Of a stretch of 51,483 bases of DNA, positions 731-20,872 are shown piece after piece. The notes beneath the pieces were generated by a model, which did not search any database, had not been told where the DNA came from, and saw only the letters and a program-made list of their open reading frames with translations. The DNA comes from Nanobdellota archaeon (lineage in GTDB: Archaea; Nanobdellota; Nanobdellia; Woesearchaeales; WJIZ01): the NCBI GenBank assembly GCA_023140175.1, contig JAGLMD010000020.1, positions 1-51,483 of the forward strand, written 5' to 3'. The translations under genes and the position numbers were made by a program. Every line of letters begins with the position of its first letter. Within the stretch, counting starts at the first letter, position 1.

Positions 731-3700
731 ATGAAAGCGCATAAAAAAGAGACAAAAAGCAAGAAAGCAGTCTTATCAATAGTGTTACTTATATCCTTAC
801 TAACTATCTCAACCATAGATTTTACAGCTAAAGCTTTCGATGAAAACATCAGCAGCTCATTAAACAGCCTAAATAATAGCCCCCATATTACCTTAACAGA
901 TAATATACAAACCACAACAATCTGCTATGGAACTCCAAAATCCTGCTATAAAATTAAGCTAAAGCCTGTTTTAAAAGACAAGGATAAAGCAATTTATCAG
1001 ATATATGAAAAATATGCATATAACATTACTGAAGAAAACATAAGCAGCAGCATAGATAATGACAAAAATCTGGGTATAATAGATATCCCAGACAACACAG
1101 ATAGTCCAATTGAAGAAAATACCAATGAAGAAGACAATAATAAAGAAGATATAACAAAAGGCCAAAACCTAACTCCAGAATCAGATGAATGCTGCTCTGG
1201 CTTGAATGTTACAAATGGCCTAATACATTCAATACAAATACCTTTAACCATTAATAATATCAGCAATAATATATCAGCTTCATTAGATAAAGATACTATA
1301 GAGAATAAAACACAAGTAAGCCGCACAAAAGAAGAAAACATTACACAGCTATCTGCAGAGATTGATAAGCCGGTAAGATGGATTAAAAGAATAACAGTAG
1401 AAAATAAAGAGAATAAAACAAGAAAAGTAAATATTTCTCTGAAAATACCTATTGAAGCCAGGAATATAGCTATTGAGAGGATAGGATTACAAAAAAAGAT
1501 ACTGGCAGAAAGAAACAAAACACAAAAAAGAATTTTGCAGGCAAAAGTATCAACTGATGCATATTTTGAGATAAAAGACAAGCAAAGAAATGAAAAATTA
1601 CTAGAAATAAACGACAATATTAACAAAAGCAAGATAGATTATGAAATTATATTTGAAACAGAGCCGCCAAAAAAACAAGAGATTGAAAAAGGAAATGGTG
1701 TAAAACAAGTAAGAGTCTATTCAAATTCTTCCTTACATTATAAAGATGTCAAAGCATCCTCTACAATACCAGAGCACCATATAACCCCCAAAATATACCA
1801 TATCATAAACAACAATAAAATAGATGTCACAAACAACCCTGACTATGATGTAAAATATATAGATACTAATAATAATAGCTTATCTGACAGGATAGAATGG
1901 ATTGTCCCGCAGCTTTCTGAACAATTGTTTGAAATTGGCTTAGCAGCTATAAACACAAAAAAATCAATATACCATCCGAATGAAACAGCAGAAATCATAA
2001 TAGTTGTCCTGGATAATAGTGGAAAACTGGTTAGTGATGCAGATGTCACAACAGAGATCACAAACCCGGATAATACAAAATACCTCTACTCAACAAGACT
2101 GGGATCTATAATAGAAACAAAAAAAGGAATATATGAACTGAATTACTCAAACACAAGACTAGAAGGTAATTATTCAATGGCTGTCTATGCCATTGGAGAT
2201 AATGTAAATAACACAATGCTTTCTTATTTCACAGTAAAAGAATATTACGAGTTTGATATTCTAAGGCAGACACCCATAACAACAGATCCCTGGCAGGGAG
2301 AATTTACATCTTCAATAAGGATTATCTCATTTACTAATACAACAAGTTTTGATTTTAGTGAGATATTACCTATAGATTTTGTAATAATAGATAAAGGAGG
2401 ATCAACCGAATCAATAGTAAACAATAAAAAGATATTAATCTGGCAGAATCTGAAAAATGATTCTATTATCAGCTACTCTGTCTTGCCCCTTTTAATTAGT
2501 CCGGCTCTTTATGAAATAGGCCAATCACAAATTCATTATGGCTCAAAAACATTTACAGAATCAAGGCCCTGGTATTTAGCAGTTGATCCCTCTCCCGAAA
2601 CACTTTATATGGAAAGCGGACAATGGAGTCCGCCAACAGGAAGCACCCTGACAGACACTGAGCTTGGTGATTTGAATGATAGTGATGCAAACGGCCTATA
2701 TTTAGATGCAAATGGAGTAGATGATTTTGGTGGAACAATCCAGAACACAAAGCCAGTAGTGCAGATAGACACAATAAGCCAGGTACATATTATTGTAGAC
2801 TGGGTAAATCTTGGAATTGACTCAGGTGAATTAACTATACAGGGCAGAGATAGTACTTCTGGTGGAACACTATGGTGCAGTGGAACAGATAGCGGAAGTT
2901 CTCCAACAACAATTGACTGCGATGCATCTCATCCTTTTAGTGCAGCAGACTTAGACAACCTTTATGTGTGGGTAATTAATACAGGCACAGGAAATGATGA
3001 TGCAAGAATAACTTATCTAAGAGTAGAAGTTGTATATACAGAAATAGACAATCCTCCAATTTGGTCAGATAACCAGTCAAATATAACTGCTATTTATTCT
3101 CCCACATCAGCAAGTGAGTTTAATATCACATGGAATGATACATTTGGAGTTGATACTGCCTGGTTTGAAAGTAATTATTCTGGCTCAGCAATTAACTATA
3201 GCATGAATGGAATCAGTGGAAACCAGTATAAGGATGTATATAATTATTCTGCTGTTCTGCCAGCCGGCACTTATTATTGGATGTCTCATGCTAATGATAC
3301 AGCAAAACAGTGGAATAATACAGACAAATTTCTATTTACTATCGCAAGAGCAACTCCTTTATTAAACCTGACTATAAATGGCTCTAATAATAATTTAACA
3401 ATGCCGGAAGATAATTCAATATTGCTTAACGGAACAATAATAAGTGGAGATAATCAAAATCTACAGATGTATCTAAATGGCACATTAATCAACAATAACA
3501 CATCTCCAATATCCAACAATACTTTATTCTCTAATCCTGGTTATTATAACATGACTTTAATTTATGAACAAAGCAAGAATTACACAGGTACGTTTGTGAC
3601 AAATTATGTAAATGTTACCGATGCCACCCCTCCAAATATAACACTGGTTGGTCCTGAAAACAACAGCTTCACAAATAATGCAAATGTTACTTTCTTCTTT

Positions 3701-6700
3701 AATGTTTCTGACTATTCGGAGATTGCAAATTGTACCCTGGACCTAAAAGGAGGTGCATTGACAAAAAATAAAAGTGCTATTGATAGAACAATAATTAATA
3801 ATATTAGTATAGGAGATGAATTGCCGGCAACCTCATTAAATTGGACTATAGAGTGCATAGATCTCTCACCAGATAGATTAATAAGCTATTCAGAAGCCTG
3901 GATAGTAACGATTGATATTACAATCCCAAGCGCAAACTACATAAGACCAAAAACACCATATAACAACGAGTACTTAAATGATTCAATTATAACAATTAAC
4001 GTATCGCATTCAGACGATTATCCTGACACAATATGGCTATATCTAAATGATACTATAAATCAAACTAGATCATATTCCGGCAGTTACACTAATTTTACTC
4101 TCAATCTAAGTGACGGTGCATGGAGATTCAATGTCACTTTAAATGATTCAGCTGGCAATACCAGAAACCTATCAACAGTCAATATTATAGTTGACACAGA
4201 AAAGCCAACTATAGATTTCATAGGCCCTACACCTGATAACAATACCAACCAAAGCTCCACAGATATAACAATTAATGTGACCCATATCGAAACCAATCCG
4301 CATACTATATCACTTTATTTAAATGGAATCATGAATCAAAGCAAATCTTATACTGGTCCATATACTAATTTTTCTTTAAATAATCTAAATGATGGTGTTT
4401 ATACATACTATGTATGGCTAAATGACTCTGCTGGTAACACCAATCAAACTAAAGTACAAACAATCAAGATCGATAGCACCCCTCCAAATTTATTTTTAAT
4501 ATCCCCGCAAAATAATATATGGGTAAATAATGCAACAAACACTGTTTTATTTGAATATAATGTGACAGATGAAACATCAGAAATTTCAGAATGCAGCTTA
4601 AAAATAAATCTGAGCAGCAATATTAGCAACGGAGATCTTAGTGGAAGTTATGATAGTACCGGAGGAAATTATACAAACTTAACTTATGACGATGATTCTT
4701 ATTGGTATATGGGGAGTGATGCACCTTTCGCAGTAATAGATGCTTTTAGCAGCATAGTCTTTAATCTAAGTTCGTTAATAATAAATGAGAACGATGTTTC
4801 TGGCTTAAATATTTCTTTAACATATTGTCATAGCAGAGAAACTATTTGTGACGGGAATAATGCAACTGGGAATGCAGAAATCGACCAAAATGTTTCATTT
4901 TACAATTATTCTTCTGGAAAATGGATAACTTTAGGGCATCTTAATTTTGGTAATGGGGGGAATGAAACTAATTCATCTTATTCTGCAAAAGGAGCTATGA
5001 GTGATTTTATCAATGACAGCAGTAATGAAGTTAAGGCTAGATTTAGAGTGCAGTTTGCAAATCTAAATCCGGGTTCTGCCAGCTTCCTGGTCATGGACTT
5101 TGTTAGATTTGATGTTACACTCGGAAACATAAGTATGGATGTATCAGAAGGCATAACTCAGAATTTCAGTTTTACATTAAAAAGCGGCTATTATAATTGG
5201 AAAATCACTTGTCTGGATGAATTAAACCATGAAAACAGTTCAGAAAACAAGCTAATAAAATCCGATTTAACTTTCCCGGCAATAACTAATATGAATGCAA
5301 ATCAGACTAATATTACAGTCAATTCATACATATGCTTAAATGTCACAGTCAGCGATACTTTTTCTGATGTAAATACAACATGGGCAAAGATTAGAGACCC
5401 GGACAACCTTGAATTGAATGTATTCCTATATGATAATCATACAACCTCTTGCGACAGCCAAATTAATGATGGTACCTACTCCAGAGAATGGGAAGTCACA
5501 AAACAGGGCCTGTATAATTGGACAATAACATATGCAAACGATACTGCTGGCAATCTAAATTCTTCAGCCACAAACCTGGTATGGAATAGTACTTCAACAG
5601 GCAGCTTAAATGTGAATCTCTTAGCACCGGCAGCTAATATTAAAATAAATGAATCTGAACCAATAATCAACTATACATACAACCATATTTGCTATGTAGA
5701 GTGTATCAGCTCATCAGATAATTGCACTGATGTAAACATATATGCACAATATAACTTTAGCGGAATTAGTGATATATCTACCTCATCAACATATTTAGTA
5801 AACCTTGAAGACTCTTATTCATGCAGTAATTTATCTCCGGGCCAGGAATGCAATCACACATTCACAATAAGAAGCGACTATACTGGTGGAGCTACTATAT
5901 GGAACATATTGTGTAAAGCATCTTCTGCTAACTTTGGAGATTATTCCTCTACTAATAGCATCAATATAACAATCAACGATCATCCCATTGCACAATTTAG
6001 TTTTCCAACCAATGGAACATGGCTCAATAACATAGAGACATTGAATGCATCATCATCAACCGATGATTCAAACATAACAAAATACATCTTTGAAATAGAC
6101 AATAATACTAATTTTGATAGTTCTGCAATCTTATGCAATAGTGCAGATATAAACTGCACATTTAACACCTCAAGCCAATCAGAATGTGATGAAGATACAT
6201 TTAATTGTTATATCAGATTAAACGTGACTGACTCTGATGGCCTGGAGAACAGTACTTATATCTCCATTCAGATTGACAATACAAAACCAAGAGCAAGCCT
6301 AAATTCACCTTTAAACAATACCTGGGACAGTGATGGAACCATAGATTTCACATACACACCATATGACACCAACATACATACATGTATCTTATATCATAAT
6401 GCTTCAGGCTTATTTATTGCAAATAAAACCAATAACACAGTTGTAAATGGCACTCAAGATGTATTCTCAATCAATTTAAGTGATGGAAATTATATATGGA
6501 ATATATGGTGTAATGATAGTGCAGGTAACTCTGCTTTCAATAATACGAATTACAGCATAAATGTAGATACAACATATCCAAAAATAAACTTTGCTGGGGG
6601 AACAGCAGATAACAATTCATATTTTAACAGAGACTGGATATATGTTAACATAACAGCAAATGATGATAACGAAGCAAACATTACATTCTACCTATTTAAC

Positions 6701-9700
6701 TCCAGCAAAGAAGAGATTAATGTGACTACATTACCAGCAGGTACTAGGGGTGTTAATTTCACTGAATTAAGAGATACCAATGAAGTATATTATTACAATG
6801 TTACAATAGAAGACTATGCCAATAATAAGAACAGTACAGAAACAAGAAAAATCACATTAGACACCAAATACCCTTCTATAGATTTTGCCGGAGGAACAGC
6901 AGGCAATGATTCATATTTTAACAGAGATTGGATTTATGTTAATGTATCAATCATGGATGATAACACAAACATAACTATATTCTATCTATATAATTCAAGC
7001 TCTAACTTGATAAACAGCACCAACTTTACAGATGGCACAACCTACATAAACTTTACAGGATTGACAGACACTAATGAAGTGTATTATTATAATGTTACTC
7101 ATATAGATAAAGCGGGTTTTGAGAATTCAACTGAAACTAGAAATATTACCCTAGATTCCATAAATCCATTAATAGGGCTAAACGAGCCAGACAATAATAC
7201 CTTAACAAATAATAACAATCTACAATTCAATTATACTCCAGTAGATACTTACCTAAAGAATTGCTCTTTATGGGGAAATTTTTCAGGCAATTGGCAATTA
7301 AATCAAACAAACACAAGTCCAACAAATGGTTCTAAAAACAGCTTTAACTCAATAACACTAGAAGATGGAAGCTACGTCTGGAATGTTGAATGTTATGATA
7401 AAGCAGGAAACAGTGCCTTTAATAGCAGTAATTATACTCTAGAGATTGATACAACCCCCCCTGCGCAGTTTAATTTAGTTTATCCTCCAAACAATACATA
7501 TTCAACTGACACAACTCCTTTCTTCAACTGGTCAGAGCCAAGTGAAAGTAATTTCGATAATTATACAATAATATTCGACGATAATAGTGACTTTAGTTCT
7601 CCTGACAAAAATTACAGTACTATTGGAAATATCTCTAACTCAAGCTTCACTATTCCCCCCTATAATTCTCTCGATAATAACACAATATATTATTGGAAAG
7701 TTATAGCATATGATACATTAGGATATAGCAAAGACTCAACCCAGGTATTTATTTACGGGACAGATAATATTTTGCCTATTATCAATTTAGAAAGCCCGCA
7801 AAATAACTCAGAAGAAGCAGCTAGTTCAATTATAAATTTCCAGTTTAATGTTACAGACGCAAATGATATCTCAAATTGTTCGCTTGTGATAAACGGCGCT
7901 ATTGATCCAGATGACATAACATCAAATCCGACAAGAAACACAACAATTACTATAAGCAGAGTGCTAAGTAACGGTTTTTATAATTGGAGCATCAACTGTA
8001 CAGATATTGCAGGAAACACAAATAAGTCAAAAACAAGAAACCTATCAATAAATGTTCAAATCCCGGGAGAGATATTCTTTGAAACATATTCTTCTAATGC
8101 CGCCTCAATTTATTTGAACAGGACAGAAGAAGGCACAGGATACTCAAACTCAGCTACATGTCGTAGAGATCAATCAATTGAAGTGATTGAAGCAGTCACA
8201 ACTCAAGGCATAGGAAAAAATGGGTTCCTGATAAAGGGTTTGCAGCCAATAAACTTTACAGGCCATTTCGTAAATGACAAAGCACCAATCATCACATGGA
8301 GACTATATCATGATTATGACAACGGAAGCGGGTGGGTACAACTAGCACAAGACGGCAATGACGCTAGTGGAGGAACAGGAACTGATGTGAACGACATTGC
8401 CTCTAGTGTAAAAAATTCCACACCAGCAGGAGATATATACCTAAATAGCAGCGGCAGATTAAGGTTAACTGCAAATATCTGGTATACTACTGGAGGAACC
8501 TCATATACATGCTACCATTACTATGATAATGGAAATTCTTTTGTGAAGTTGTTCGGTTATGTATTGGGATTTTTAGATGCTAATATAAGCAGCCCCCTGG
8601 CAGACCCAGAACTGATAGAAGGCTCTAATTTCAATGTTTCATGCGATATCAGATGTGATGATGGCTGGTGCATGAATACAAAAGTCTATGTTCAATATAA
8701 AACACCATCAACATCATGGACTGATATTAGCACAACCGGAAACTTAGTTCTTGCTGATGGTGAAACAAACCCCCAAGTTATCGGAGATATTAATCTGACT
8801 CAAAAAATAAACTTCAGCATTAAAGCCAATACCATATCAAGAAATAATGCAATAAGGTGCAGAGCTGAATCCACATATTCGAATTCAACCGGAGCAGTAA
8901 ACACTACTATAACTATAAGAGATGCAACATACCCAACAGTTTCATTAAATAACCCCCAAAATAATAGCTGGGAAAGTGATGGAAATGTAACATTCTATTA
9001 TACACCAGACGATAATCATAATGTTTCTAATTGCTCTTTAATCATTAATAATAAAATAAATCAGACAAATACAACTATCCAAAACCATGGTTCAAATAAT
9101 TTCACATTAACTAGCCTAAATGAAGGAAGTTATAATTGGAGTATTAATTGTACAGACTCATTTGATAACACTAATAGTTCAGAAACATGGATATTTAATA
9201 TTGACACTACTTATCCTAAGATTTTTTTCGGTAATGGCACAGAAGACAATAACACATATTTTAACAGGGATTGGATTTATGTTAATGTATCAATCATAGA
9301 TGATAATACAAACATAACTATATTCTATCTATATAATTCAAGCTTTAATCTGATAAACAGCACCAATTTTACAGATGGCACAACTTACATAAACTTTACA
9401 GGATTGACAGATATTAATGAAGAGTATTATTATAATGTTACCCATATAGATAAAGCAGGGAATATTAATACAACTGAAACAAGGAAAATAACTCTTGACA
9501 CAAATAATCCAGAAATTGACTTTGCCGGGGAAACAGAAGATAACAATTCGTACTTTAACAGAGACTGGATATACATCAACATAAGTGCCAGTGATGATAA
9601 CGAAGCAAACATTACATTCTACCTATTTAACTCCAGCAAAGAAGAGATTAATGTGACAACATTACCAGCAGGCACTAGAAGCGTTAATTTCACTGAATTG

Positions 9701-12700
9701 ACTGATACCAATGAAGTGTATTATTATAATGTTACAATTATTGACAAGGCTAATAATATTAACTCGACAGAAACAAGAAAAATCACATTAGATACTAAAT
9801 ACCCATCTATAGATTTTGCCGGAGGAACAGCAGACAACAACACATACTTTAACAGGGATTGGGTTTATGTTAATGTCTCTATTACAGATGATAACACAAA
9901 TATAACTATATTCTATCTATATAATTCAAGCTTTAATCTGATAAACAGCACCAATTTTACAGACGGAACAACCCATATAAACTTTACAGGATTGACAGAT
10001 ACTAATGAAGTGTATTATTATAATGTTACAATTTTTGATAAGGCAAATAATATTAATTCCACTATAACCAGAAAGATTACTTTAGATGATACTAATCCAA
10101 GAGCAAGCTTAAATTCACCTTTAAACAACACATGGGACAGTGATGGAACAATAGATTTCACTTATACACCATATGACACTAACATACATACATGTATCTT
10201 ATATCATAATGCTTCCAGCTTATTTATTGCAAATGAGACTAATGATACAGTTATTACCAGCACTCAAGATGTATTCTCAATCAGTTTAAGCGACGGAAAT
10301 TATGTGTGGAATATATGGTGTAATGATAGTGCAGGTAACTCTGCTTTCAATAATACGAATTACAGCATAAATGTAGACACAACATACCCGGAAATTGACT
10401 TTGCCGGCGGAACAGCAGACAATGATTCATACTTCAACAGGGGCTGGATATACATTAATGTAACAGCAGATGATGATAACGAAGCAAACATTACATTCTA
10501 TCTATTTAACTCCAGCAAAGAAGAGATTAATGTGACAACATTACCAGCAGGCACTAGAAGCGTTAATTTCACTGAATTGACTGATACCAATGAAGTGTAT
10601 TATTATAATGTTACAATAGAAGACTATGCCAATAATAAGAACAGTACAGAAACAAGAAAAATCACATTAGATACAAGTAATCCGCAAATTGGCTTTGCTG
10701 GAGGAACAGCAGACAACAATTCATACTTCAATAGAAACTGGATATATGTCAATGTATCAATCATAGATGATAACACAAATATAACTATATTCTATCTATA
10801 TAATTCAAGCTTTAATCTGATAAACAGCACTAATTTTACAGATGGCACAACTTACATAAACTTTACAGGATTGACAGACACTAATGAAGTGTATTATTAT
10901 AATGTTACAATTTTTGATAAAGCAAATAATATTAATTCTACTGTAACCAGAAAGATTACTTTAGACACAACTTACCCAGCTATAGAATTTACAGACCCAA
11001 CACAACCTAACAACACCAACCAAAGCTCGGTAAATATAATAATTAATGTAACTCACACAGAAGAGAATCCTAATACAATCATATTATATGTAAACGAAAG
11101 CCATAACCAAAGCAGGCAATACTCTGGCACTTATACAAATTTCACTTTGACTAATTTAAATGACGGAACATATACTTACTATGTATGGCTGAATGACTCT
11201 GCCGCTAATACAAACAGAACAGAAACAAGAACAATAACAATAGATACAACCCCCCCAGTTATTAACCTAATAAATCCTGAAAATAATACATGGAGAAATA
11301 ATGAAAGTAAGCAGGTCTTATTTGAATATAATGCCTCAGATAGTTTATTGGAAATTGCTAATTGCTCATTGATATTAAACAATCAAATAAATCAAACAAA
11401 TTATACATTGCAAAAGGATAAAACACTGAATTTCACAGAATCTCTGGCTAATGGCAATCATACTTGGAGCATAAATTGCTCTGATACTGTTGGTAATATA
11501 AATAATTCAGAACAATGGCTAATAAAAGTAGATTTGACATTCCCAAGAATCGCGAACATAAATGTAAATGTTACTAATGCATCTACAACAACATATATTT
11601 GCTTAAATGCAACAATAACAGACACAGGCTCTGGTGTAAATTGGACTAAAGTATATATTCTGCCCCCAAGTGGAAAAAGTGAACCAGTATTCCTGTACAA
11701 CAATATAACCACATCCTGCGACCAGAGTGATACAGATAATGTTTATTCTGCAGAGTACAGGCTTGCAGAAGTAGGAGAATATAACTGGACAACAATAGAA
11801 GCAAATGATACTGCAGGCAACCTAAATTCTACAGTTGTCGGATTAATCTGGGACAGTACAACAATAGGTACAATGACAGTGAATATGACTTCTCCAACAA
11901 CAAACTTGGAAATAAATGAATCAGACCAGGGAATTAATTATACATATAACCAGACATGTGCAGTCATTTGTGATGACACTCCCCAAAATTGCACAAACGT
12001 TTATTTATATGCACAATACAATCTAAGTGGAGCAGCTGATATTACTAATACAACCAAATACTTAGAAAATTATGCTGATAATTACTTCTGTGGAAATCTT
12101 ACAGCAGGCAATACAACCCCATGCAGCTATACATTTACTATACGCTCCACATTAGATGGTGGTGCAAGGTTATGGAATGTCTGGTGCAGGGCAGACTCTG
12201 ATCTAGTTGGCAGCTATCTTTCAGATGAAAATGTAAATATAAGCGTGAATGATCATCCAACAGCAGCAATCACCTATCCAGCTAATGCCGCTTGGCTGCA
12301 CAGCATTGAAAGACTAAATGCAGCTGCTAGCTCTGATGACCAAAGTATAATAAATTATACTTTCTTTTTAGATAATAATTCTAATTTCTCCTCTCCTTCA
12401 TTAATTTGCTCATCCAGCCAGGAAAACTGCAGTTTTGATACATTAACACAAACTCAATGCGCAAATAATAGCATGAGTTGTTATTTACAGCTAAATGTGA
12501 CAGATTCTGATGGACTGAAAAACAGCACATATATTACAATAGCAATAGACAATGATGGCCCAGCAGCAGCATTAGATATGCCGTCAAACTGGACTAATAT
12601 TACAGCCAATTCTTACAAGCTAAATGCTACAATAAATGATACTGGCATTGGTGTAAATGTGACTATTTTCTTATACAGAGAGAATGATACAGAGACATGG

Positions 12701-15700
12701 AAAAATGCATGTAGTGATACAGAGGGCATTAGTCCATTTAATTGCAGCTGGAACCTGGCCATATTACCAGACGGAAATTACTATCAGATTCGGGTTTATG
12801 CAAATGACAGCTTAGGCAATATAGGAAACAATTATACAACCCACAATATAACAATAGATAGAAAGCCCCCTATTATTTATCTTGAAAGCCCGCAAAACAA
12901 CACATGGAGCAGGGAGAATGTAACATTCTACTACAATGTCTCAGACAAAACATCAAATATTGCCAATTGCAGCTTAATAATCAACGGAATAATAAACCAA
13001 ACAAATATCTCACTAAGTGAAGACATAAGTTTAAACTTCACCATAAATAGCTTTAATGACGGAAACTATAATTGGAGCATAAATTGTACCGATGCTTTAG
13101 GTAATCAAAACAATTCAGAGACAAGAATAATAAAAATAGATAACACCCCGCCAAATGTTATTTTAGACAACCCCAAAAACTTCACAAATATTTCTGCTGC
13201 CAGCTATACTATCAATGCTTCAGCAGCAGACTCAGGCATAGGTGTTAATGCAACGGTATTTTATTATAGAGAGAACAGCACTGCCCAGTGGAATTTAATA
13301 TGTACCAATGAAACCTTGCCTTATAGATGCTCATGGGACACCGGCTCTTTGACAGAAGGCAATAATTATCAAGTTAAAGTTCATGCAAATGACAGCTTAG
13401 GCAATGTAGGTTTAAATGATACCCATTATAATATAACAATTGATAGAACTCCGCCGACAATAAACTTATTTGAGCCAGCTAATGATGAGCAGGATACTGA
13501 TGGAACTATTATTTTCAAATATAACGCAACAGATACACTTTTAGGAATAACCAACTGCAGCTTAATAATTAATGATACTATTAATCGAACCAACCACACA
13601 ATTACAGAAGGTATTAGTCAAAACTTTACATTAACCAATGTAGCAAATGGTGATTATACATGGAACATTAATTGCACAGATTCAGCAGGAAATCAAGATA
13701 GCTCAGAAATAAGAAACCTGACAGTAAACCCTGACACAGACCCCCCAATTATTAATTTAACTTCTCCAAAAGATGCACTTACTCTGTCTTATAATGATAT
13801 AACTTTCAGCTTTAATGTAAGTGATGCTTTATCTGGTATTGCAAATTGCAGTTTGATTATCAATGGCACAGTAAACCAGACTAATCAAACTGCAATTACT
13901 AAAGATCAAATAAATAGTATTTTTACTATTGATGATATGCCAGACGGCGATTATTTATGGAACATAACATGTACAGATACAGCCTCAACCCCAAATATTG
14001 GATATAGTAAAACATTCGAACTGACCATACAGGAAGCAACTACCCTAATAGTTAACCTAAGCTTAGACAGGTCTTCTTATGAAAGCACAGCCACATCTGG
14101 AGAACTGGCAAACATATCTACATCAACAGAAGATCAATTCGGCAACACCAGAATTACTAATATCACAGTAAGCATAATTAAAGCAAACACAACAATTCCC
14201 TGGTGGAACTCCAGTTATCATTACAGGCGAATTATAAACATATCTAATAACTATAATGGAACCCTGGAAACTGATTATACTATAAACCATACCATAGATA
14301 CTCAAATTCTCATAAATGACAGTAAGATTCAGGCAAGTGGCTCTGATTTAAGGATAGCATTCTGGAACAATGGAACAAATAGCTGGCAAGAGCTTGACAG
14401 AATAGTATCCGGCATTAACACAACCAACACAAGTATATTATTCAAGACCCAAAAAAATATCTCCACGAACACATCAGACTCAAGCTATTATGTCTACTAT
14501 GGCAATTTAAGTGTAACAAGCCCGCCAGAAAATAAATCAAAAGTATATTTCTATTATGACAGTTTTGACGATGACACAAGAAGCAGATATAATACAACAC
14601 TAGCATTTGATGATCCATTTAATACTCTTCAGGCCGCTGATGAAGATGATGATTCGACCATAACACACAATGCAACAGGAGGAAATATCAGATATACTGG
14701 GACAGGAGGAAGAGGAAAATCTATAAGAGTAGAAACATTATCTATAAAAGACCTTATCATTGAAGTTGAACAGAATTTTGATTATTATCCAGATGGCTTA
14801 ACTGTATTTTTCCAGTTAGGTGCCAGGATAACCGGAACTAGCTATTATTTCTTTAATATTCCAAATGAAGATCTCTATGATGAAGAAACACAGATCGCAA
14901 GATATAATGACGGGATAAAGTCTAGTCTATTTAATAAAAAGTTGCAGCAATACTCAGATGATACATACTATAAATTCAAGTTCATGGTATATGATATAAA
15001 TTCCAGCACTACAGCATTAAGAGTCTTTATGGATGATACAGAAGTCTTGAGCCATAATGATTCTGCTGCTAATAGGATCACAGATCCTGGCAGTTTTGGT
15101 ACAGGCAGTGTTCAATTTGTAGGAAACTGGGATAATCTAACAGTCAAAAGATACATCTTAGATGAACCAACATCTGCATCAGGCAGTGAAGAAGAAAGGA
15201 TTGAAATAAGAAACAGCGAAACAGATTCTGATGGAATATATCAATTTTTCTTTAATACAACAAACAAAACTTATGCAAACTATAGTGTCATATCCTTAGC
15301 TGCTAAACCCCCTTACTATAGTAATGGCATCGGCGTTAAATTCTTCGAGATAAGATCAGATACAACACACCCAACTATTACCCTAAATTACCCAACAATC
15401 TTCTTAAATCTGACAGATATGTCAATAAATTTCAACTGGACAGCAGATGACAGGATTGATAGAAACATAACATGTAATTTAACCATCAACGGTAAAGTCA
15501 ATATATCAGATATAGATAGCCTGGACGAGACACCAATAAATTATACTATAAACAACATAGCTGAAGGAACGCATTATTGGAACATAACTTGTATAGACGA
15601 CCATAATAACACAAATACCAGTTTAACTTACTCCCTTACCATTATTGATGAGCCAAAGAATCTAAATGCCAGTTTATCATCAGATAATGTGAGTATAATA

Positions 15701-16531
15701 ATAAACTGGACAGGTAAAACCTACTCAGCCACTTACAACATACATATAGTTGATGATTATACTACCCCATTCTCAACAACACCAAATGTAACAGGAATAA
15801 CTGGCTTGAATTGGACAGACAAAAATGCTAATCAATCTACAAAAAGATTCTACAAAGTCACAACTATTAGGGGAAATGCCAATAAAACCACCTCAAAAAC
15901 AGTAGGAAAGTATGAAGTTGAACTATTAAATAATTCAGAATCTGGCACAGACTGGAACTTAATAAGCATACCATTTAAACTAAATAAATGGGAATTAAAT
16001 AATGGAACTAACAATGGTTATGATTTTCCTGTCAAACCGGCAAGATGCATAATTACCCTATGGAGATACAACGATTCTATAGGTTGGGAAAGGACAAATT
16101 ATGATAATGGAAACTGGAGTCCTGCAACAGAAAGCGATAATTTTACAAGATTAGAGCAGGGAAAAGGCTATTGGGTTGAGGTTAATAAATCATGCAACCT
16201 TACTTTTATTGGAGAAGTACCGACAGAAGATACCAACTTTAGCTTGTTATCGGGATGGAACATGGTAGGTTGGTACTCAACAAACTCTTCTAACCTGCTG
16301 ATAGTAGGAGAGCCGCCATATTATCCAATAATTGTGGATCCTATAAACTCTGTTGATACAATAGATAAGTACAATACAATTACAGATTCTTTTGAAGTTA
16401 CATTCCATCATAATGGGTGGGGCTGGTGGCCATCCGACGATAATCAAGATTTCACAACAATAAATCCCACAATAGGCTATTATTTCGATGTAAATCAGGC
16501 TGCTTCATGGCAGCACGACCCAAATACATAG
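731..16531 (+). CDS. Giant secreted/cell-surface protein (5,266 aa), multi-module beta-sandwich adhesin-like protein with DUF2341-like and LamG/ConA-like region near the C-terminus
   Basis: Single uninterrupted 15.8-kb ORF. The N-terminus has a basic stretch plus a hydrophobic segment (KKAVLSIVLLISLLTISTIDFTAKAF), i.e. a signal peptide or signal anchor. About 15 or more copies occur of a ~90-100-aa module ending ...NCSLIINGxINQTN...NFT...DGNYNWSINCTDxxGNxxNSExRxIxID. N-x-S/T sequons are extremely dense. WWNSSYHYRRIINISNN...GSDLRIAFWNNGTNSWQELDRIV (about nt 14200-14420) resembles DUF2341 and is followed by a lectin-like stretch. No C-terminal TM helix. Confidence 0.9.
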   Translation: MKAHKKETKSKKAVLSIVLLISLLTISTIDFTAKAFDENISSSLNSLNNSPHITLTDNIQTTTICYGTPKSCYKIKLKPVLKDKDKAIYQIYEKYAYNITEENISSSIDNDKNLGIIDIPDNTDSPIEENTNEEDNNKEDITKGQNLTPESDECCSGLNVTNGLIHSIQIPLTINNISNNISASLDKDTIENKTQVSRTKEENITQLSAEIDKPVRWIKRITVENKENKTRKVNISLKIPIEARNIAIERIGLQKKILAERNKTQKRILQAKVSTDAYFEIKDKQRNEKLLEINDNINKSKIDYEIIFETEPPKKQEIEKGNGVKQVRVYSNSSLHYKDVKASSTIPEHHITPKIYHIINNNKIDVTNNPDYDVKYIDTNNNSLSDRIEWIVPQLSEQLFEIGLAAINTKKSIYHPNETAEIIIVVLDNSGKLVSDADVTTEITNPDNTKYLYSTRLGSIIETKKGIYELNYSNTRLEGNYSMAVYAIGDNVNNTMLSYFTVKEYYEFDILRQTPITTDPWQGEFTSSIRIISFTNTTSFDFSEILPIDFVIIDKGGSTESIVNNKKILIWQNLKNDSIISYSVLPLLISPALYEIGQSQIHYGSKTFTESRPWYLAVDPSPETLYMESGQWSPPTGSTLTDTELGDLNDSDANGLYLDANGVDDFGGTIQNTKPVVQIDTISQVHIIVDWVNLGIDSGELTIQGRDSTSGGTLWCSGTDSGSSPTTIDCDASHPFSAADLDNLYVWVINTGTGNDDARITYLRVEVVYTEIDNPPIWSDNQSNITAIYSPTSASEFNITWNDTFGVDTAWFESNYSGSAINYSMNGISGNQYKDVYNYSAVLPAGTYYWMSHANDTAKQWNNTDKFLFTIARATPLLNLTINGSNNNLTMPEDNSILLNGTIISGDNQNLQMYLNGTLINNNTSPISNNTLFSNPGYYNMTLIYEQSKNYTGTFVTNYVNVTDATPPNITLVGPENNSFTNNANVTFFFNVSDYSEIANCTLDLKGGALTKNKSAIDRTIINNISIGDELPATSLNWTIECIDLSPDRLISYSEAWIVTIDITIPSANYIRPKTPYNNEYLNDSIITINVSHSDDYPDTIWLYLNDTINQTRSYSGSYTNFTLNLSDGAWRFNVTLNDSAGNTRNLSTVNIIVDTEKPTIDFIGPTPDNNTNQSSTDITINVTHIETNPHTISLYLNGIMNQSKSYTGPYTNFSLNNLNDGVYTYYVWLNDSAGNTNQTKVQTIKIDSTPPNLFLISPQNNIWVNNATNTVLFEYNVTDETSEISECSLKINLSSNISNGDLSGSYDSTGGNYTNLTYDDDSYWYMGSDAPFAVIDAFSSIVFNLSSLIINENDVSGLNISLTYCHSRETICDGNNATGNAEIDQNVSFYNYSSGKWITLGHLNFGNGGNETNSSYSAKGAMSDFINDSSNEVKARFRVQFANLNPGSASFLVMDFVRFDVTLGNISMDVSEGITQNFSFTLKSGYYNWKITCLDELNHENSSENKLIKSDLTFPAITNMNANQTNITVNSYICLNVTVSDTFSDVNTTWAKIRDPDNLELNVFLYDNHTTSCDSQINDGTYSREWEVTKQGLYNWTITYANDTAGNLNSSATNLVWNSTSTGSLNVNLLAPAANIKINESEPIINYTYNHICYVECISSSDNCTDVNIYAQYNFSGISDISTSSTYLVNLEDSYSCSNLSPGQECNHTFTIRSDYTGGATIWNILCKASSANFGDYSSTNSINITINDHPIAQFSFPTNGTWLNNIETLNASSSTDDSNITKYIFEIDNNTNFDSSAILCNSADINCTFNTSSQSECDEDTFNCYIRLNVTDSDGLENSTYISIQIDNTKPRASLNSPLNNTWDSDGTIDFTYTPYDTNIHTCILYHNASGLFIANKTNNTVVNGTQDVFSINLSDGNYIWNIWCNDSAGNSAFNNTNYSINVDTTYPKINFAGGTADNNSYFNRDWIYVNITANDDNEANITFYLFNSSKEEINVTTLPAGTRGVNFTELRDTNEVYYYNVTIEDYANNKNSTETRKITLDTKYPSIDFAGGTAGNDSYFNRDWIYVNVSIMDDNTNITIFYLYNSSSNLINSTNFTDGTTYINFTGLTDTNEVYYYNVTHIDKAGFENSTETRNITLDSINPLIGLNEPDNNTLTNNNNLQFNYTPVDTYLKNCSLWGNFSGNWQLNQTNTSPTNGSKNSFNSITLEDGSYVWNVECYDKAGNSAFNSSNYTLEIDTTPPAQFNLVYPPNNTYSTDTTPFFNWSEPSESNFDNYTIIFDDNSDFSSPDKNYSTIGNISNSSFTIPPYNSLDNNTIYYWKVIAYDTLGYSKDSTQVFIYGTDNILPIINLESPQNNSEEAASSIINFQFNVTDANDISNCSLVINGAIDPDDITSNPTRNTTITISRVLSNGFYNWSINCTDIAGNTNKSKTRNLSINVQIPGEIFFETYSSNAASIYLNRTEEGTGYSNSATCRRDQSIEVIEAVTTQGIGKNGFLIKGLQPINFTGHFVNDKAPIITWRLYHDYDNGSGWVQLAQDGNDASGGTGTDVNDIASSVKNSTPAGDIYLNSSGRLRLTANIWYTTGGTSYTCYHYYDNGNSFVKLFGYVLGFLDANISSPLADPELIEGSNFNVSCDIRCDDGWCMNTKVYVQYKTPSTSWTDISTTGNLVLADGETNPQVIGDINLTQKINFSIKANTISRNNAIRCRAESTYSNSTGAVNTTITIRDATYPTVSLNNPQNNSWESDGNVTFYYTPDDNHNVSNCSLIINNKINQTNTTIQNHGSNNFTLTSLNEGSYNWSINCTDSFDNTNSSETWIFNIDTTYPKIFFGNGTEDNNTYFNRDWIYVNVSIIDDNTNITIFYLYNSSFNLINSTNFTDGTTYINFTGLTDINEEYYYNVTHIDKAGNINTTETRKITLDTNNPEIDFAGETEDNNSYFNRDWIYINISASDDNEANITFYLFNSSKEEINVTTLPAGTRSVNFTELTDTNEVYYYNVTIIDKANNINSTETRKITLDTKYPSIDFAGGTADNNTYFNRDWVYVNVSITDDNTNITIFYLYNSSFNLINSTNFTDGTTHINFTGLTDTNEVYYYNVTIFDKANNINSTITRKITLDDTNPRASLNSPLNNTWDSDGTIDFTYTPYDTNIHTCILYHNASSLFIANETNDTVITSTQDVFSISLSDGNYVWNIWCNDSAGNSAFNNTNYSINVDTTYPEIDFAGGTADNDSYFNRGWIYINVTADDDNEANITFYLFNSSKEEINVTTLPAGTRSVNFTELTDTNEVYYYNVTIEDYANNKNSTETRKITLDTSNPQIGFAGGTADNNSYFNRNWIYVNVSIIDDNTNITIFYLYNSSFNLINSTNFTDGTTYINFTGLTDTNEVYYYNVTIFDKANNINSTVTRKITLDTTYPAIEFTDPTQPNNTNQSSVNIIINVTHTEENPNTIILYVNESHNQSRQYSGTYTNFTLTNLNDGTYTYYVWLNDSAANTNRTETRTITIDTTPPVINLINPENNTWRNNESKQVLFEYNASDSLLEIANCSLILNNQINQTNYTLQKDKTLNFTESLANGNHTWSINCSDTVGNINNSEQWLIKVDLTFPRIANINVNVTNASTTTYICLNATITDTGSGVNWTKVYILPPSGKSEPVFLYNNITTSCDQSDTDNVYSAEYRLAEVGEYNWTTIEANDTAGNLNSTVVGLIWDSTTIGTMTVNMTSPTTNLEINESDQGINYTYNQTCAVICDDTPQNCTNVYLYAQYNLSGAADITNTTKYLENYADNYFCGNLTAGNTTPCSYTFTIRSTLDGGARLWNVWCRADSDLVGSYLSDENVNISVNDHPTAAITYPANAAWLHSIERLNAAASSDDQSIINYTFFLDNNSNFSSPSLICSSSQENCSFDTLTQTQCANNSMSCYLQLNVTDSDGLKNSTYITIAIDNDGPAAALDMPSNWTNITANSYKLNATINDTGIGVNVTIFLYRENDTETWKNACSDTEGISPFNCSWNLAILPDGNYYQIRVYANDSLGNIGNNYTTHNITIDRKPPIIYLESPQNNTWSRENVTFYYNVSDKTSNIANCSLIINGIINQTNISLSEDISLNFTINSFNDGNYNWSINCTDALGNQNNSETRIIKIDNTPPNVILDNPKNFTNISAASYTINASAADSGIGVNATVFYYRENSTAQWNLICTNETLPYRCSWDTGSLTEGNNYQVKVHANDSLGNVGLNDTHYNITIDRTPPTINLFEPANDEQDTDGTIIFKYNATDTLLGITNCSLIINDTINRTNHTITEGISQNFTLTNVANGDYTWNINCTDSAGNQDSSEIRNLTVNPDTDPPIINLTSPKDALTLSYNDITFSFNVSDALSGIANCSLIINGTVNQTNQTAITKDQINSIFTIDDMPDGDYLWNITCTDTASTPNIGYSKTFELTIQEATTLIVNLSLDRSSYESTATSGELANISTSTEDQFGNTRITNITVSIIKANTTIPWWNSSYHYRRIINISNNYNGTLETDYTINHTIDTQILINDSKIQASGSDLRIAFWNNGTNSWQELDRIVSGINTTNTSILFKTQKNISTNTSDSSYYVYYGNLSVTSPPENKSKVYFYYDSFDDDTRSRYNTTLAFDDPFNTLQAADEDDDSTITHNATGGNIRYTGTGGRGKSIRVETLSIKDLIIEVEQNFDYYPDGLTVFFQLGARITGTSYYFFNIPNEDLYDEETQIARYNDGIKSSLFNKKLQQYSDDTYYKFKFMVYDINSSTTALRVFMDDTEVLSHNDSAANRITDPGSFGTGSVQFVGNWDNLTVKRYILDEPTSASGSEEERIEIRNSETDSDGIYQFFFNTTNKTYANYSVISLAAKPPYYSNGIGVKFFEIRSDTTHPTITLNYPTIFLNLTDMSINFNWTADDRIDRNITCNLTINGKVNISDIDSLDETPINYTINNIAEGTHYWNITCIDDHNNTNTSLTYSLTIIDEPKNLNASLSSDNVSIIINWTGKTYSATYNIHIVDDYTTPFSTTPNVTGITGLNWTDKNANQSTKRFYKVTTIRGNANKTTSKTVGKYEVELLNNSESGTDWNLISIPFKLNKWELNNGTNNGYDFPVKPARCIITLWRYNDSIGWERTNYDNGNWSPATESDNFTRLEQGKGYWVEVNKSCNLTFIGEVPTEDTNFSLLSGWNMVGWYSTNSSNLLIVGEPPYYPIIVDPINSVDTIDKYNTITDSFEVTFHHNGWGWWPSDDNQDFTTINPTIGYYFDVNQAASWQHDPNT
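6275..7153 (+). repeat. Intragenic segmental duplication copy 1: PRAS-type module plus two 294-bp modules (type A 6566-6859, type B 6860-7153)
   Basis: Aligns in frame with 10088-10963. For example, 6521-6570 (taatgatagtgcaggtaactctgctttcaataatacgaattacagcataaatgtagatac) is almost identical to 10321-10380. Type A translates as DTTYPKINFAGGTADNNSYFNRDWIYVNITANDDNEANITFYLFNSSKEEINVTTLPAGTR... Confidence 0.9.
9203..10084 (+). repeat. Intragenic tandem array of three 294-bp (98-aa) modules in order B-A-B
   Basis: Three consecutive in-frame 98-codon units begin DTTYPKIFFGNG..., DTNNPEIDFAGE... and DTKYPSIDFAGG.... Long nucleotide runs are identical to the modules at 6566-7153 and 10376-10963. Confidence 0.9.
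10088..10963 (+). repeat. Intragenic segmental duplication copy 2: PRAS-type module plus type A (10376-10669) and type B (10670-10963) modules
   Basis: In-frame paralog of 6275-7153, offset 3813 nt with one codon of indel. DTNPRASLNSPLNNTWDSDGTIDFTYTPYDTNIHTCILYHNAS... is repeated almost verbatim. Confidence 0.9.
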
Positions 16532-19103: not shown

Positions 19104-20872
19104 ATAAAAATTATTTAATGTTATTTATCAGTATTATATGCCTCATCCTAATATCTCATATTATTAACGCTCCAGACCTGCCGCATAATGTAAAAGGAAG
19201 GGTATTCCATTCAGACGGCATTACTGGAGTAGATGACGGAATAATTGTTATGATCAACAACACAAATAATAACAACTATGTCACAACCCAGGTTTATTCC
19301 CCCCCATTCGAAAAGGGCTGGTATGGTACTACCATAGAAGGCACTGATTATGATACAATAATTGTAATGGCTTGGAACACTACAGCATATGGCATAAACA
19401 CAACAACACTTGCACCGACCACAACCTCTGCTAACATCGTACTAAATACAACTCGCCCAAGTGAAACAAATGTAACAATAATAATCCCTTCCGACCATAC
19501 TATGTTTAATATAACAAATTATTTTAATGTCACTGTTAAGGTTGGTGTTATTGGAGGAACTGATGGAGGAGATTGTACTGCAACCATAAGTTTTAGCAAC
19601 AGTGATGTATTAAAGCTTGCACCTTCTGAATCTGCAGCTCATGATATAGGGCCAATAAGTCTGGGAGATACTAAAGAAACTAATTGGAATATAAGCGGAA
19701 ATTTAACTGGCAGCCCGAATATTACTATCATTGCTAATTGTACAAATGACGGATTAAATTTTGATAATTTAAACAGCTATACCGCATATAATATAACAAT
19801 ACAGGACGATGAAGCACCGGCAGTAGAACTCATATATCCGGGAAATAACTCAAAAATAACAGCATCTAATTCCCAAATAGTCTTCAAATATAATGTATCT
19901 GATAATTCAAATATCGCAAATTGTTCACTAATAATAAACGGAAAAATAAATCATACAAATCATACCATTTCAAAAGAAATAACACAAAATTTTACTCTGC
20001 TGCTAACCAACAATACATATAATTGGAGTATTAATTGTACTGAGGATAGTACAGGCCGCAATACAGGCTCTTCTCCTATCTTCAATTTGACTATCATTAC
20101 TAATACTGCACCCACAGTAACTGACATTGATGTTGATGATCCAATTGATTTAACAGTGGGCTCAACAACTATTATATATTGCAATGCGACAATAACCGAT
20201 GAAAATGGCGTTGATGATATACGAAGTGTTAATTCGACACTTTATTATACTCCTGTTGGCGTTTTATCAGATGATGATAATAATGACCATTATACAAACA
20301 ATACCTGTGAGAATATATCAAGTACTGCAAATACCATAGATTATGTCTGTTCCTTTAATGTCTATTACTATGCAGACAATGGAATTTGGACATGTAACAT
20401 AAGTGCATTTGACAATATCAGCAATATTGGCAGCGATGCAATAGGAACAACAGTAAGTGAATTATTAGCTATAGATGTCTCCCCCTATATTATTGATTAT
20501 GGAGAAATAGGGCCTGGCGAGAACTCATCAGACGATTTTAAGCTAAACATAACAAATTTTGGAAATATAGACTTTAATGTAACAGTAGATGGTTTTGCCA
20601 GGGAAGATGAAGATAATCTGTCAATGAACTGCACAAGAGGGAACATATCAATCGAATATCAAAAATATTCAATACATGAAAATCAGCTTTATTATGAGAT
20701 GAACAATCTATCTGATTTACCCGCTTTAATTAGTAATTTCACATTACCACAGAGAACTAACGACACAACATATAAAAGGGATAAAAACCATACATACTGG
20801 AAGATGGGTTTACCCTATGGAATTCAAGGAAATTGTGCTGGTTTTGTTGTAGTTACAGGAATTAAAAGTTGA
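19100..20872 (+). CDS. Secreted/surface beta-sandwich protein sharing modules with the giant protein and with the 25686..26642 protein
   Basis: 590 aa with an N-terminal hydrophobic segment. It contains the module ...FKYNVSDNSNIANCSLIINGKINHTNHTISKEITQNFTLLLTNNTYNWSINCTED found in the giant ORF. The C-terminal ~260 aa (from TNTAPTVTDIDVDDPIDLTVGST..., about nt 20099) aligns with the 25686..26642 product. Sequon-rich. Confidence 0.85.
   Translation: MNKNYLMLFISIICLILISHIINAPDLPHNVKGRVFHSDGITGVDDGIIVMINNTNNNNYVTTQVYSPPFEKGWYGTTIEGTDYDTIIVMAWNTTAYGINTTTLAPTTTSANIVLNTTRPSETNVTIIIPSDHTMFNITNYFNVTVKVGVIGGTDGGDCTATISFSNSDVLKLAPSESAAHDIGPISLGDTKETNWNISGNLTGSPNITIIANCTNDGLNFDNLNSYTAYNITIQDDEAPAVELIYPGNNSKITASNSQIVFKYNVSDNSNIANCSLIINGKINHTNHTISKEITQNFTLLLTNNTYNWSINCTEDSTGRNTGSSPIFNLTIITNTAPTVTDIDVDDPIDLTVGSTTIIYCNATITDENGVDDIRSVNSTLYYTPVGVLSDDDNNDHYTNNTCENISSTANTIDYVCSFNVYYYADNGIWTCNISAFDNISNIGSDAIGTTVSELLAIDVSPYIIDYGEIGPGENSSDDFKLNITNFGNIDFNVTVDGFAREDEDNLSMNCTRGNISIEYQKYSIHENQLYYEMNNLSDLPALISNFTLPQRTNDTTYKRDKNHTYWKMGLPYGIQGNCAGFVVVTGIKS

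Follow-up and report, generated by a model that had tools for sequence, protein, structure and literature searches.

The element described here is a single open reading frame (ORF) of 5,266 codons found in a Nanobdellota archaeon (assembly GCA_023140175.1, contig JAGLMD010000020.1), within a stretch of 51,483 nucleotides (nt) that was analysed as a whole and is referred to below as the window. The ORF, called here the giant, takes up 30.7% of the 51.5-kb window, close to the "nearly a third" given by a first-pass annotation made from the sequence alone, and its frame is intact from end to end without an internal stop codon, as had also been stated there. Its G+C content is ~33-35% along the gene, the same as in the remaining window. 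An in-frame TAA at 728-730 immediately precedes the ATG of the giant, and the stop codon of an upstream gene lies only 22 nt before that ATG, so there is no space between them for a promoter of its own. Four partner genes follow on the same strand, and the 58-nt gap behind the stop codon of the giant shows no T-run terminator. All features are collected in Table 1.

The N-terminus of the giant reads MKAHKKETKSKK, AVLSIVLLISLLTISTI and DFTAKA↓F, which correspond to the n-, h- and c-regions of a Sec signal. At the other end, the protein finishes with the hydrophilic sequence AASWQHDPNT, and a hydrophobicity scan of the whole protein found no C-terminal hydrophobic helix or tail anchor; the sole further hydrophobic window, at amino acid (aa) 1333, falls within a beta-rich insert. 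The N-terminal signal and the missing C-terminal anchor noted earlier were thus both recovered. The giant carries neither the transmembrane (TM) tail nor the PGF-CTERM/archaeosortase type of ending that marks C-terminally anchored archaeal surface proteins.

Table 1. Features of the giant gene, its neighbours in the window and further giant ORFs of the same genome (contigs C1 to C128). Positions without a contig name refer to the window.
Feature	Position	Strand	Remarks
Upstream gene, 186 aa	148..708	+	without Pfam match
Giant ORF	731..16531	+	5,266 aa; mature protein ~585 kDa, pI 4.3
Sec-type signal peptide, aa 1-35	731..835	+	K-rich n-region, 17-aa h-region, AKA↓F site; homologues of classical cleavable type
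N1, aa 36-400	836..1930	+	variable start, then K/E-rich stretch; common only to closest relatives
N2, aa 401-620	1931..2590	+	weakly MG2/YtkA-like; best-conserved part of the protein
N3, aa 621-770	2591..3040	+	hypervariable, sequon-poor; between conserved RPWYLAVDP and first Ig module
Array of ~32 tandem Ig-like modules (Big_13/Big_7 type)	3038..14020	+	8.3 sequons per module, at recurrent columns
Nested insert of ~177 aa, aa 1294-1470	4610..5140	+	within one Ig module
Repeat zone, 294-nt (98-aa) modules	6279..10960	+	63-91% nt identity; copy number as assembled
Non-Ig mid region, 287 aa, aa 2440-2726	8048..8908	+	conserved among 24 relatives (33-44% identity); without family match
DUF2341-like domain, aa 4491-4600	14201..14530	+	
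Conserved region of ~270 aa, aa 4601-4873	14531..15349	+	"lectin-like" in the first-pass annotation; low sequon density
Last Ig-like module, aa 4874-4967	15350..15631	+	iterated HMM
FN3 domain, aa 4968-5059	15632..15907	+	AlphaFold2 model, Foldseek, profile versus PDB
C-terminal domain (CTD), ~205 aa, aa 5060-5266	15908..16528	+	all-beta; at extreme C-terminus of family members
Partner 1, 837 aa	16590..19103	+	signal peptide, He_PIG/cadherin-like Ig repeats, C-terminal TM helix, basic tail
Partner 2, 590 aa	19100..20872	+	exported, has Ig module, no anchor
Partner 3, 382 aa	20869..22017	+	Cys-rich 16-aa repeats, C-terminal TM helix, basic tail
Partner 4, 394 aa	22027..23211	+	signal peptide, C-terminal TM helix, KKKRK tail
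Further giant	C30:1-16525	-	at least 5,508 aa
Further giant	C1:4727-19594	+	
Further giant	C55:694-11544	+	
Further giant	C96:94-13511	+	
Further giant	C50:66-7892	+	
Further giant	C51:243-6113	+	
Further giant	C128:248-7381	-	

Most of the protein is an array of immunoglobulin (Ig)-like modules. A hidden Markov model (HMM) built on the giant protein itself and iterated recognises 33 significant modules, each of ~97 aa, between aa 770 and 4430 and at aa 4874-4970, and two further modules that are degenerate; counting the latter and the FN3 domain, the protein contains about 36 tandem beta-sandwich modules in total. Three Pfam families also score above their gathering cut-offs, namely Big_13 (PF19077; 81.3 versus 27 bits), Big_7 (PF17957; 59.9 versus 24.1 bits) and Big_3_3 (57.7 versus 27 bits), and the "dozens of beta-sandwich-type modules" read by eye in the first-pass annotation are confirmed by both approaches. 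Pairwise identity between the Ig modules has a median of 24% and a maximum of 91%, and at the DNA level the repeat zone comprises seven 294-nt copies together with a segmental duplication of ~880 nt (6279-7150 and 10089-10960). Within the N-terminal part, for which a search of the 765 aa against PDB gave no match, the N2 region is 59-68% identical to its orthologues and 33% identical to paralogues on contigs C1, C55 and C96. The idea that N3, the nested insert and the mid region are homologous to one another was rejected at the sequence level (BLASTP E>=0.5). The nested insert is missing at exactly its site in the orthologues P0153, P0027, P0017 and P0019, and aa 1544-1714 of the C96 paralogue match it at 79% identity; judged by its sequence, the insert seems to stem from a recent transfer of the domain from one paralogue to another inside the genome.

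The protein ends in a cassette with the order DUF2341-like domain, conserved 270-aa domain, Ig module, FN3 domain and 205-aa CTD. For the first half of the "DUF2341-like plus lectin-like" region of the earlier annotation, DUF2341 (PF10102) scores 18.9-19.4 bits in the giant, below the gathering cut-off of 23.4 (E=0.0015-0.002), and matches six of the eight orthologous segments, with a best E of 9.3e-6. The lectin-like half rests on a pattern, as aa 4601-4873 have no Pfam match at E<=1, either in the giant or in eight orthologues, and a profile search against PDB returned nothing relevant; the region ends in GFGTGS.QF.G.WDNLTVKRY, and its likeness to ConA-like/laminin-G folds was seen by eye only. 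The FN3 assignment is supported by a Foldseek match to 3mpc_A (probability 1.00, TM-score 0.64, root-mean-square deviation 2.0) and by a profile match in PDB (E=1.5e-6).

The CTD is the final W/G/Y-rich domain pointed out earlier, and it proved to be real and conserved across the family, with the motifs WNLISxPF, GxGYW, GWGWWP and GYYF in the alignment. A cysteine is invariant at CTD position 96 and another is near-invariant at position 47 (numbered from aa 5060), and the domain carries the conserved sequons NGT, NFT and CNLT. In all 63 of the 63 homologues containing FN3 and CTD, this unit ends 0-6 residues from the C-terminus. AlphaFold2 predicts a compact all-beta structure of ~15 strands, with a pLDDT of 90.9 for FN3 plus CTD and, for the CTD alone, a pLDDT of 92.5 and a pTM of 0.88. 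Neither the CTD of the giant nor the CTD part of 17 family members matches Pfam at E<=1, NCBIfam gave no match, and searches of PDB by sequence or profile returned none. Foldseek found nothing credible for the model, either in PDB (best E=0.03, TM-score<=0.26) or in BFVD (best E=0.009, TM-score 0.17). As modelled, the CTD appears to be without a known relative in Pfam, NCBIfam, PDB and BFVD, which falls short of proof of a new fold.

N-glycosylation sequons (N-x-S/T, x not P) number 367 in the giant, a density of 6.97 per 100 aa; shuffles that preserve the composition contain 145 ± 9.7 (2.54-fold excess, z=22.9). This justifies the term "extreme sequon density" used in the first-pass annotation, and the 31-residue stretch with five sequons quoted there is present at aa 2861 and again at aa 3350. 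Control motifs are not enriched ([ST]-x-N 0.92-fold, N-x-x-[ST] 0.69-fold, N-x-D 0.46-fold, N-x-N 0.66-fold), and because such reversed or shifted motifs occur at or below expectation, the excess is directional and positional rather than a product of beta-strand alternation or of the richness in N, S and T that had been put forward as the explanation to be feared. Nor is it inflated by module duplication, since 21 Ig modules less than 50% mutually identical keep the excess (2.55-fold, z=15.4) and the non-Ig parts of the giant show it too (2.38-fold, z=10.3). Compared with other proteins of the genome, as the same annotation had proposed, the giant (2.52-fold in this comparison) stands above both the ORFs without hydrophobic segments, taken as the cytoplasmic class (1.09-fold), and those with a signal peptide only (1.70-fold), and the median excess among 135 homologues with a length of 1,000 aa or more is 2.66-fold. 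Within the Ig modules, the sequons return at the same alignment columns, one of which is filled in 27 of the 33 modules; because these positions are fixed in each module, the shaft would carry a regular glycan coat. Density is lowest in N3 (0.7 per 100 aa), followed by N2 (2.7), the "lectin-like" region (3.3) and the mid region (3.8). A gene for the AglB/STT3 oligosaccharyltransferase is located on contig C139 (143 bits), so the genome has the capacity for AglB-dependent N-glycosylation of the giant, while attachment of glycans at the sequons is predicted from the sequence.

A frame of this length, built of in-frame 294-nt repeats, might be chimeric or have the wrong number of modules as a result of collapsed or mis-joined copies, and the 63-91% identity of the repeats gives this concern some substance. 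In an independent assembly of the same species (GCA_030636085.1, locus L015), contig DAOVXO010000016.1 stops at window position 10501, within the 294-nt repeat block; near-identical copies of the 590-aa neighbour are present in other assemblies, and further assemblies contain nothing longer than pieces of 141 and 247 aa. Assembly of the repeat zone is thus difficult, and contig ends also cut several of the other giant genes in the genome. Nevertheless, we consider a serious artefact very improbable. Contig DAOVXO010000016.1 matches window 10501-30872 over 20.4 kb, ungapped and at 99.95%, with all 11 differences outside the giant, so that the last 6,031 nt of the gene are 100% identical, and the repeat copies differ by at least 9%, which is sufficient for short-read assembly. 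Moreover, the orthologue P0019 (6,837 aa) aligns to aa 1434-5003 as one high-scoring segment pair of 3,600 columns at 51% identity, and P0017 (5,347 aa) aligns to aa 1471-5260 in the same way over 3,827 columns at 43% identity, each with few gaps; module number and order are thus matched one-to-one in other species. Three C7 tracts occur on the coding strand, at 7455-7461, 11250-11256 and 19299-19305, against 0.74 expected (4 of 100 shuffles reach three), and the two within the giant encode Pro-Pro at module boundaries. Phase variation through these tracts was rejected, as those at 11250 and 19299 have the same length in the second assembly.

The partner genes are linked to the CTD beyond this genome. 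As a single-sequence query against the genome contigs, the FN3-CTD part of the giant gave no match; a four-sequence alignment used as the query revealed three CTD loci. The order giant-837-590-382-394 aa is kept in loci L012 (49-59% identity), L013 and L014. In a sample of 300 genomes of the order, a strong CTD match was obtained in 27, and a strong homologue of the 394-aa partner was present in 25 of these 27 versus 37 of the 273 others (Fisher p=2e-17, uncorrected for phylogeny), with positives spanning ~21 families. The two genes lie no more than 6 kb apart in eight genomes and no more than 25 kb apart in four more. In genomes without the CTD, the 394-aa gene still adjoins a gene with a 590-like C-terminal half; as this pair persists without the CTD, the 590-like and 394-aa genes seem to make up its core, with the CTD giants as one class of clients. 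One such case is locus L017 (G153:C6:5000-24900), in a genome without the CTD, where the 394-aa gene stands beside a giant of 4,152 aa (1809-14264, minus strand) with a 590-like C-terminal part; judged from the sequence, it is an alternative way to join a giant to the same cluster. The 382-aa partner gene contains a 48-nt (16-aa) Cys-rich repeat, EDEFILNRSCVRLNCS (window 21608-21788), whose copy number differs among three assemblies of the species, giving products of 382, 379 and 363 aa.

We propose, with moderate confidence, that the giant is a Sec-exported, glycan-coated fibre of adhesin-like architecture, docked through its C-terminus to tail-anchored partners and bearing a variable head at its N-terminus. 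The signal peptide would be cleaved, and AglB would glycosylate a large share of the 367 sequons. The ~36 tandem beta-sandwich modules may form a rod of ~130-160 nm, a length calculated by assuming 3.5-4.5 nm per module. The FN3-CTD unit would dock non-covalently to the co-encoded envelope proteins, three of which are probably tail-anchored in the membrane, and the opposite end, with the conserved N2 and the hypervariable, almost sequon-free N3, is the putative distal, ligand-specific end.

Similar arrangements are known from other systems. In bacterial tandem-Ig adhesins (LapA, SiiE, MpIBP, RTX), an Ig rod serves as an extender, the anchor and the ligand-binding region lie at opposite ends, and length changes by module duplication. 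These adhesins are exported by type I secretion, held by a retention module in the outer membrane and built of BIg repeats that Ca2+ makes rigid, and they have no N-glycan coat. The giant is archaeal and Sec-exported, and RTX adhesins are likened to it as functional analogues only; the Ca_tandemer model (NF033510) gives 13.8 bits in the giant against a cut-off of 50. Modules that dock non-covalently to surfaces at the C-terminus include those of cohesin-dockerin and SLH systems and the WxL domain, which has DUF916/DUF3324 tail-anchored operon partners in Firmicutes. By analogy, the CTD may be compared with dockerin, SLH and WxL, as it is conserved, stands at the very C-terminal end of diverse exported proteins and is genetically linked to membrane-anchored partners, although it shares no sequence or fold similarity with them in Pfam, PDB and BFVD searches. 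It is possible, and we suggest it only tentatively, that the CTD is an undescribed fold and a DPANN envelope-docking module that plugs proteins of 0.9-7 thousand aa onto operon-encoded tail-anchored receptors, so that the five proteins would constitute one surface organ with a glycan-coated shaft that turns a fast-evolving N-terminal head towards the host.

The assignment of foot and head draws on several lines of evidence. Full-length relatives carry short, classical signal peptides of the AxA type (e.g., VSA↓S, VHS↓Q, FAAA↓E), which makes N-terminal anchoring unlikely for the family. The N3 domain is 4-24% identical to its closest orthologues, whereas its flanks are 50-76% identical, and it contains one sequon in 150 aa; the orthologues P0153 and P0027 likewise share 14-30% identity in N3 against 56-84% in the flanking windows. 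Its sequence makes N3 a candidate specificity head. A diversity-generating retroelement as the source of this hypervariability was ruled out, because an RVT_1 match, and hence a reverse transcriptase, is missing from the genome, and nt 2576-3100 do not occur there a second time, as a template repeat would. A C-terminal foot and an N-terminal head agree with the combination of a variable, unshielded N-terminal domain, a conserved CTD that is always terminal and linked partners with tail anchors. The first-pass annotation had left two modes of retention side by side, an N-terminal anchor and binding to the tail-anchored neighbours; the signal peptides, the terminal CTD and its co-occurrence with, and frequent adjacency to, these neighbours favour the second, although indirectly.

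Several observations weigh against this assignment. The giant itself has a long h-region of 17-19 aa, which might stay uncleaved and serve as an anchor. A foot formed by the CTD would place DUF2341 and the "lectin-like" domain beside the cell, an odd position for ligand-binding modules, and the CTD, at 57% identity to the closest orthologues versus ~50% for the shaft, is not clearly more conserved, so conservation does not single out the docking end. As for the partners, about half of the co-occurring genomes, some nearly closed ones among them, have the CTD and the 394-aa gene on separate contigs, and in one genome (G264) the two are 67 kb apart; the 394-aa gene is also found in 37 genomes without the CTD, and the co-occurrence statistic ignores phylogenetic non-independence. 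A serious rival, which we find doubtful, is the reverse orientation, in which an uncleaved N-terminal signal anchor holds the protein and the C-terminal cassette is a distal host- or glycan-binding head on a glycosylated stalk. Apart from the long h-region and the unremarkable conservation of the CTD, this rival gains from the fact that domains of the DUF2341 and LamG types usually occur where ligands are bound (P0009, a relative, has Pfam matches to DUF2341 and Laminin_G), that the cassette is conserved as a self-contained unit and is joined to shafts that differ greatly in length, and that the "lectin-like" domain is as poor in sequons as an exposed binding face would be. It is at odds, however, with the short cleavable signal peptides of the other family members and with a CTD that is well conserved and has conserved sequons, unlike a specificity tip, whereas the hypervariable unshielded domain is N-terminal; it also gives no reason for the co-occurrence of the CTD with the partners.

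The giant is not alone in its genome. At least eight further giant sequon-rich ORFs, from 1,500 to more than 5,500 aa and with a 2.3-2.9-fold sequon excess, were found, several of them cut by contig ends, and 19 sequon-enriched ORFs (Poisson p<1e-6) account for 6.2% of the genome. With this number of others, one of which (on C30) is longer, the giant is not demonstrably the main host-contact or glycan-shield protein, as the first-pass annotation had thought likely; what that annotation observed is correct, and its interpretation is partly supported. The CTD occurs in this genome only in the 5,266-aa giant. Such an abundance of paralogous sequon-rich giants would suit a bulk surface or glycocalyx role, and together with the missing covalent or transmembrane anchor it raises the possibility that the giant is shed or is part of a loosely bound glycan-rich coat or matrix (for protection, for hydration or as a phage decoy), with the CTD used for self-association or S-layer binding. 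Halomucin, an archaeal giant regarded as such a coat, is mucin-like and sugar-binding and is not a tandem Ig array with a defined terminal cassette. Halomucin (Haloquadratum walsbyi, ~9,000 aa; PMC6642349) shares with our protein a giant size, archaeal origin and the lack of a membrane anchor, together with the export and glycosylation predicted for ours. We regard a coat as rather improbable, as a defined collinear architecture is kept over thousands of residues between species, and the hypervariable domain and dedicated operon point to a specific assembly.

Within DPANN archaea, the nearest described proteins are the nanohaloarchaeal SPEARE/SVXNc_0300 giants, which end in a TM helix and a cytoplasmic VirB4/TraG-like ATPase that was first read as a restriction enzyme (PMC6642349, PMC10266531). 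Common to both are the DPANN origin, a size of 4-9 thousand aa, a Sec signal peptide, and tandem Ig/FN3-like modules of ~100 aa (PMC6642349, PMC10266531), as well as a presumed function in cell-cell contact and the presence of several such proteins per genome, amounting to a few percent of coding capacity; the laminin-G/lectin-type inserts of the nanohaloarchaeal giants have a putative counterpart in the "lectin-like" region. Our protein thus has the Sec signal peptide and long Ig run of SPEARE, but it lacks the TM helix and ATPase, ends in an extracellular FN3-CTD and shows no sequence relationship to them beyond generic Ig modules; Pfam and NCBIfam scans of the whole giant found no ATPase domain.

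A HerA/VirB4-like membrane ATPase is nevertheless encoded on the same strand 18 kb downstream (window 34624-36930), and one may imagine a split machine of the SPEARE/SVXNc_0300 type, with the Ig shaft and this ATPase as a trans-envelope conduit. The fusion of nanohaloarchaeal Ig shafts to a TM helix and a VirB4/TraG-like ATPase (PMC10266531) is the precedent for it, and in genomes G226, G264 and G207 the ATPase and CTD genes are 16-21 kb apart. Homologues of the ATPase also occur in giant frames, one of 4,204 aa (G173:C21:35476-37449) and one of 3,378 aa (G070:C96:1919-3859), and SPEARE-like shaft-ATPase fusions therefore exist outside Nanohaloarchaeota; in many other genomes of the order, the homologues lie in frames of 1,200-1,460 aa. 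Even so, a split machine is highly unlikely, given that the giant has neither a TM helix nor an ATPase domain and that no specific linkage exists. Tight linkage of CTD giants to the ATPase was sought and not found: the ATPase is near-universal (19 of 20 genomes tested) and is mostly on another contig or 40-77 kb from the CTD gene.

Candidate S-layer and surface glycoproteins of cultivated DPANN archaea, such as MJ1_0160 of Nanobdella aerobiophila, also combine a signal peptide, several Ig-like folds and many N-glycosylation sites, and some lack a C-terminal TM helix and occur alongside tail-anchored SlaB-like partners; lectin folds were recognised in them by structure prediction only (10.1101/2023.10.27.564410). 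Compared by description, they have ~1,000 aa and 13-52 sequons, in contrast to the giant, which is five times longer and has 367. A giant glycosylated tandem-Ig surface protein in a DPANN archaeon is, as a kind of object, expected rather than surprising. What goes beyond known systems is the domain without known relatives that always stands at the C-terminus, the five genes in conserved order and the hypervariable N-terminal domain.

The family is widespread. A search with the last 787 aa of the giant retrieved 2,046 cluster representatives at E<=1e-3, with 249 still passing E<=1e-30; lengths of 3-7.7 thousand aa are frequent among them, and the named relatives are "hypothetical", "Ig-like" or "CARDB domain-containing" proteins of metagenome-assembled genomes of Nanoarchaeota, Woesearchaeota and Pacearchaeota. 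Loci retrieved with the CTD carry the labels Nanoarchaeota and Aenigmatarchaeota, and one belongs to a "Methanosarcinales" bin. Relatives range from 0.9 to 7.3 thousand aa and differ in module number, so shaft length is an evolvable parameter. Giant surface proteins are the usual suspects in DPANN host attachment, and those described so far are of the nanohaloarchaeal ATPase-fused type; with more than 2,000 cluster representatives, the present locus defines a second widespread giant architecture. The CTD can be expressed alone, and together with the four partner genes and the hypervariable, sequon-poor N-terminal domain, a candidate determinant of host specificity, this makes retention and specificity experimentally approachable. 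Sequons at fixed positions of a repeated module are, in addition, a useful natural example for AglB site selection and glycan shielding.

The first-pass annotation had referred to giant surface proteins as a recurrent feature of ultrasmall symbiotic archaea and bacteria. That the organism is archaeal is borne out by a Pelota/eRF1-like gene in the window, by AglB and by the names of the relatives, and genomes of the same order mostly measure 0.6-1.8 Mb, with few larger; the genome itself, at 2.07 Mb, is large for the group, and no small-subunit rRNA gene was found in it, so that taxonomy relies on the names attached to homologues and loci. The gene cluster is absent from the sampled genomes of the same genus and family. 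Horizontal transfer of the cluster was considered and rejected, because CTD identity and the Pelota/eRF1-like protein rank genomes alike (G043, G140, then G173 and G070), and vertical descent with loss therefore suffices.

Two observations concern other genes. Four large ORFs of the genome are strongly depleted in sequons, namely C174:7914-13964(-), C27:1724-7204(-), C135:29005-33759(+) and C160:2440-6651(+). Three of the four have an N-terminal hydrophobic segment, one has a single sequon versus 23.8 expected (Poisson p=1e-9), and all are less N-rich than the giants; they are possibly foreign genes or encode proteins selected to stay unglycosylated. In genome G201, the Pelota/eRF1-like gene (G201:C97:11095-13698) matches in two pieces ~1.5 kb apart within a single 871-aa frame, an arrangement that suggests an in-frame insertion, possibly an intein.

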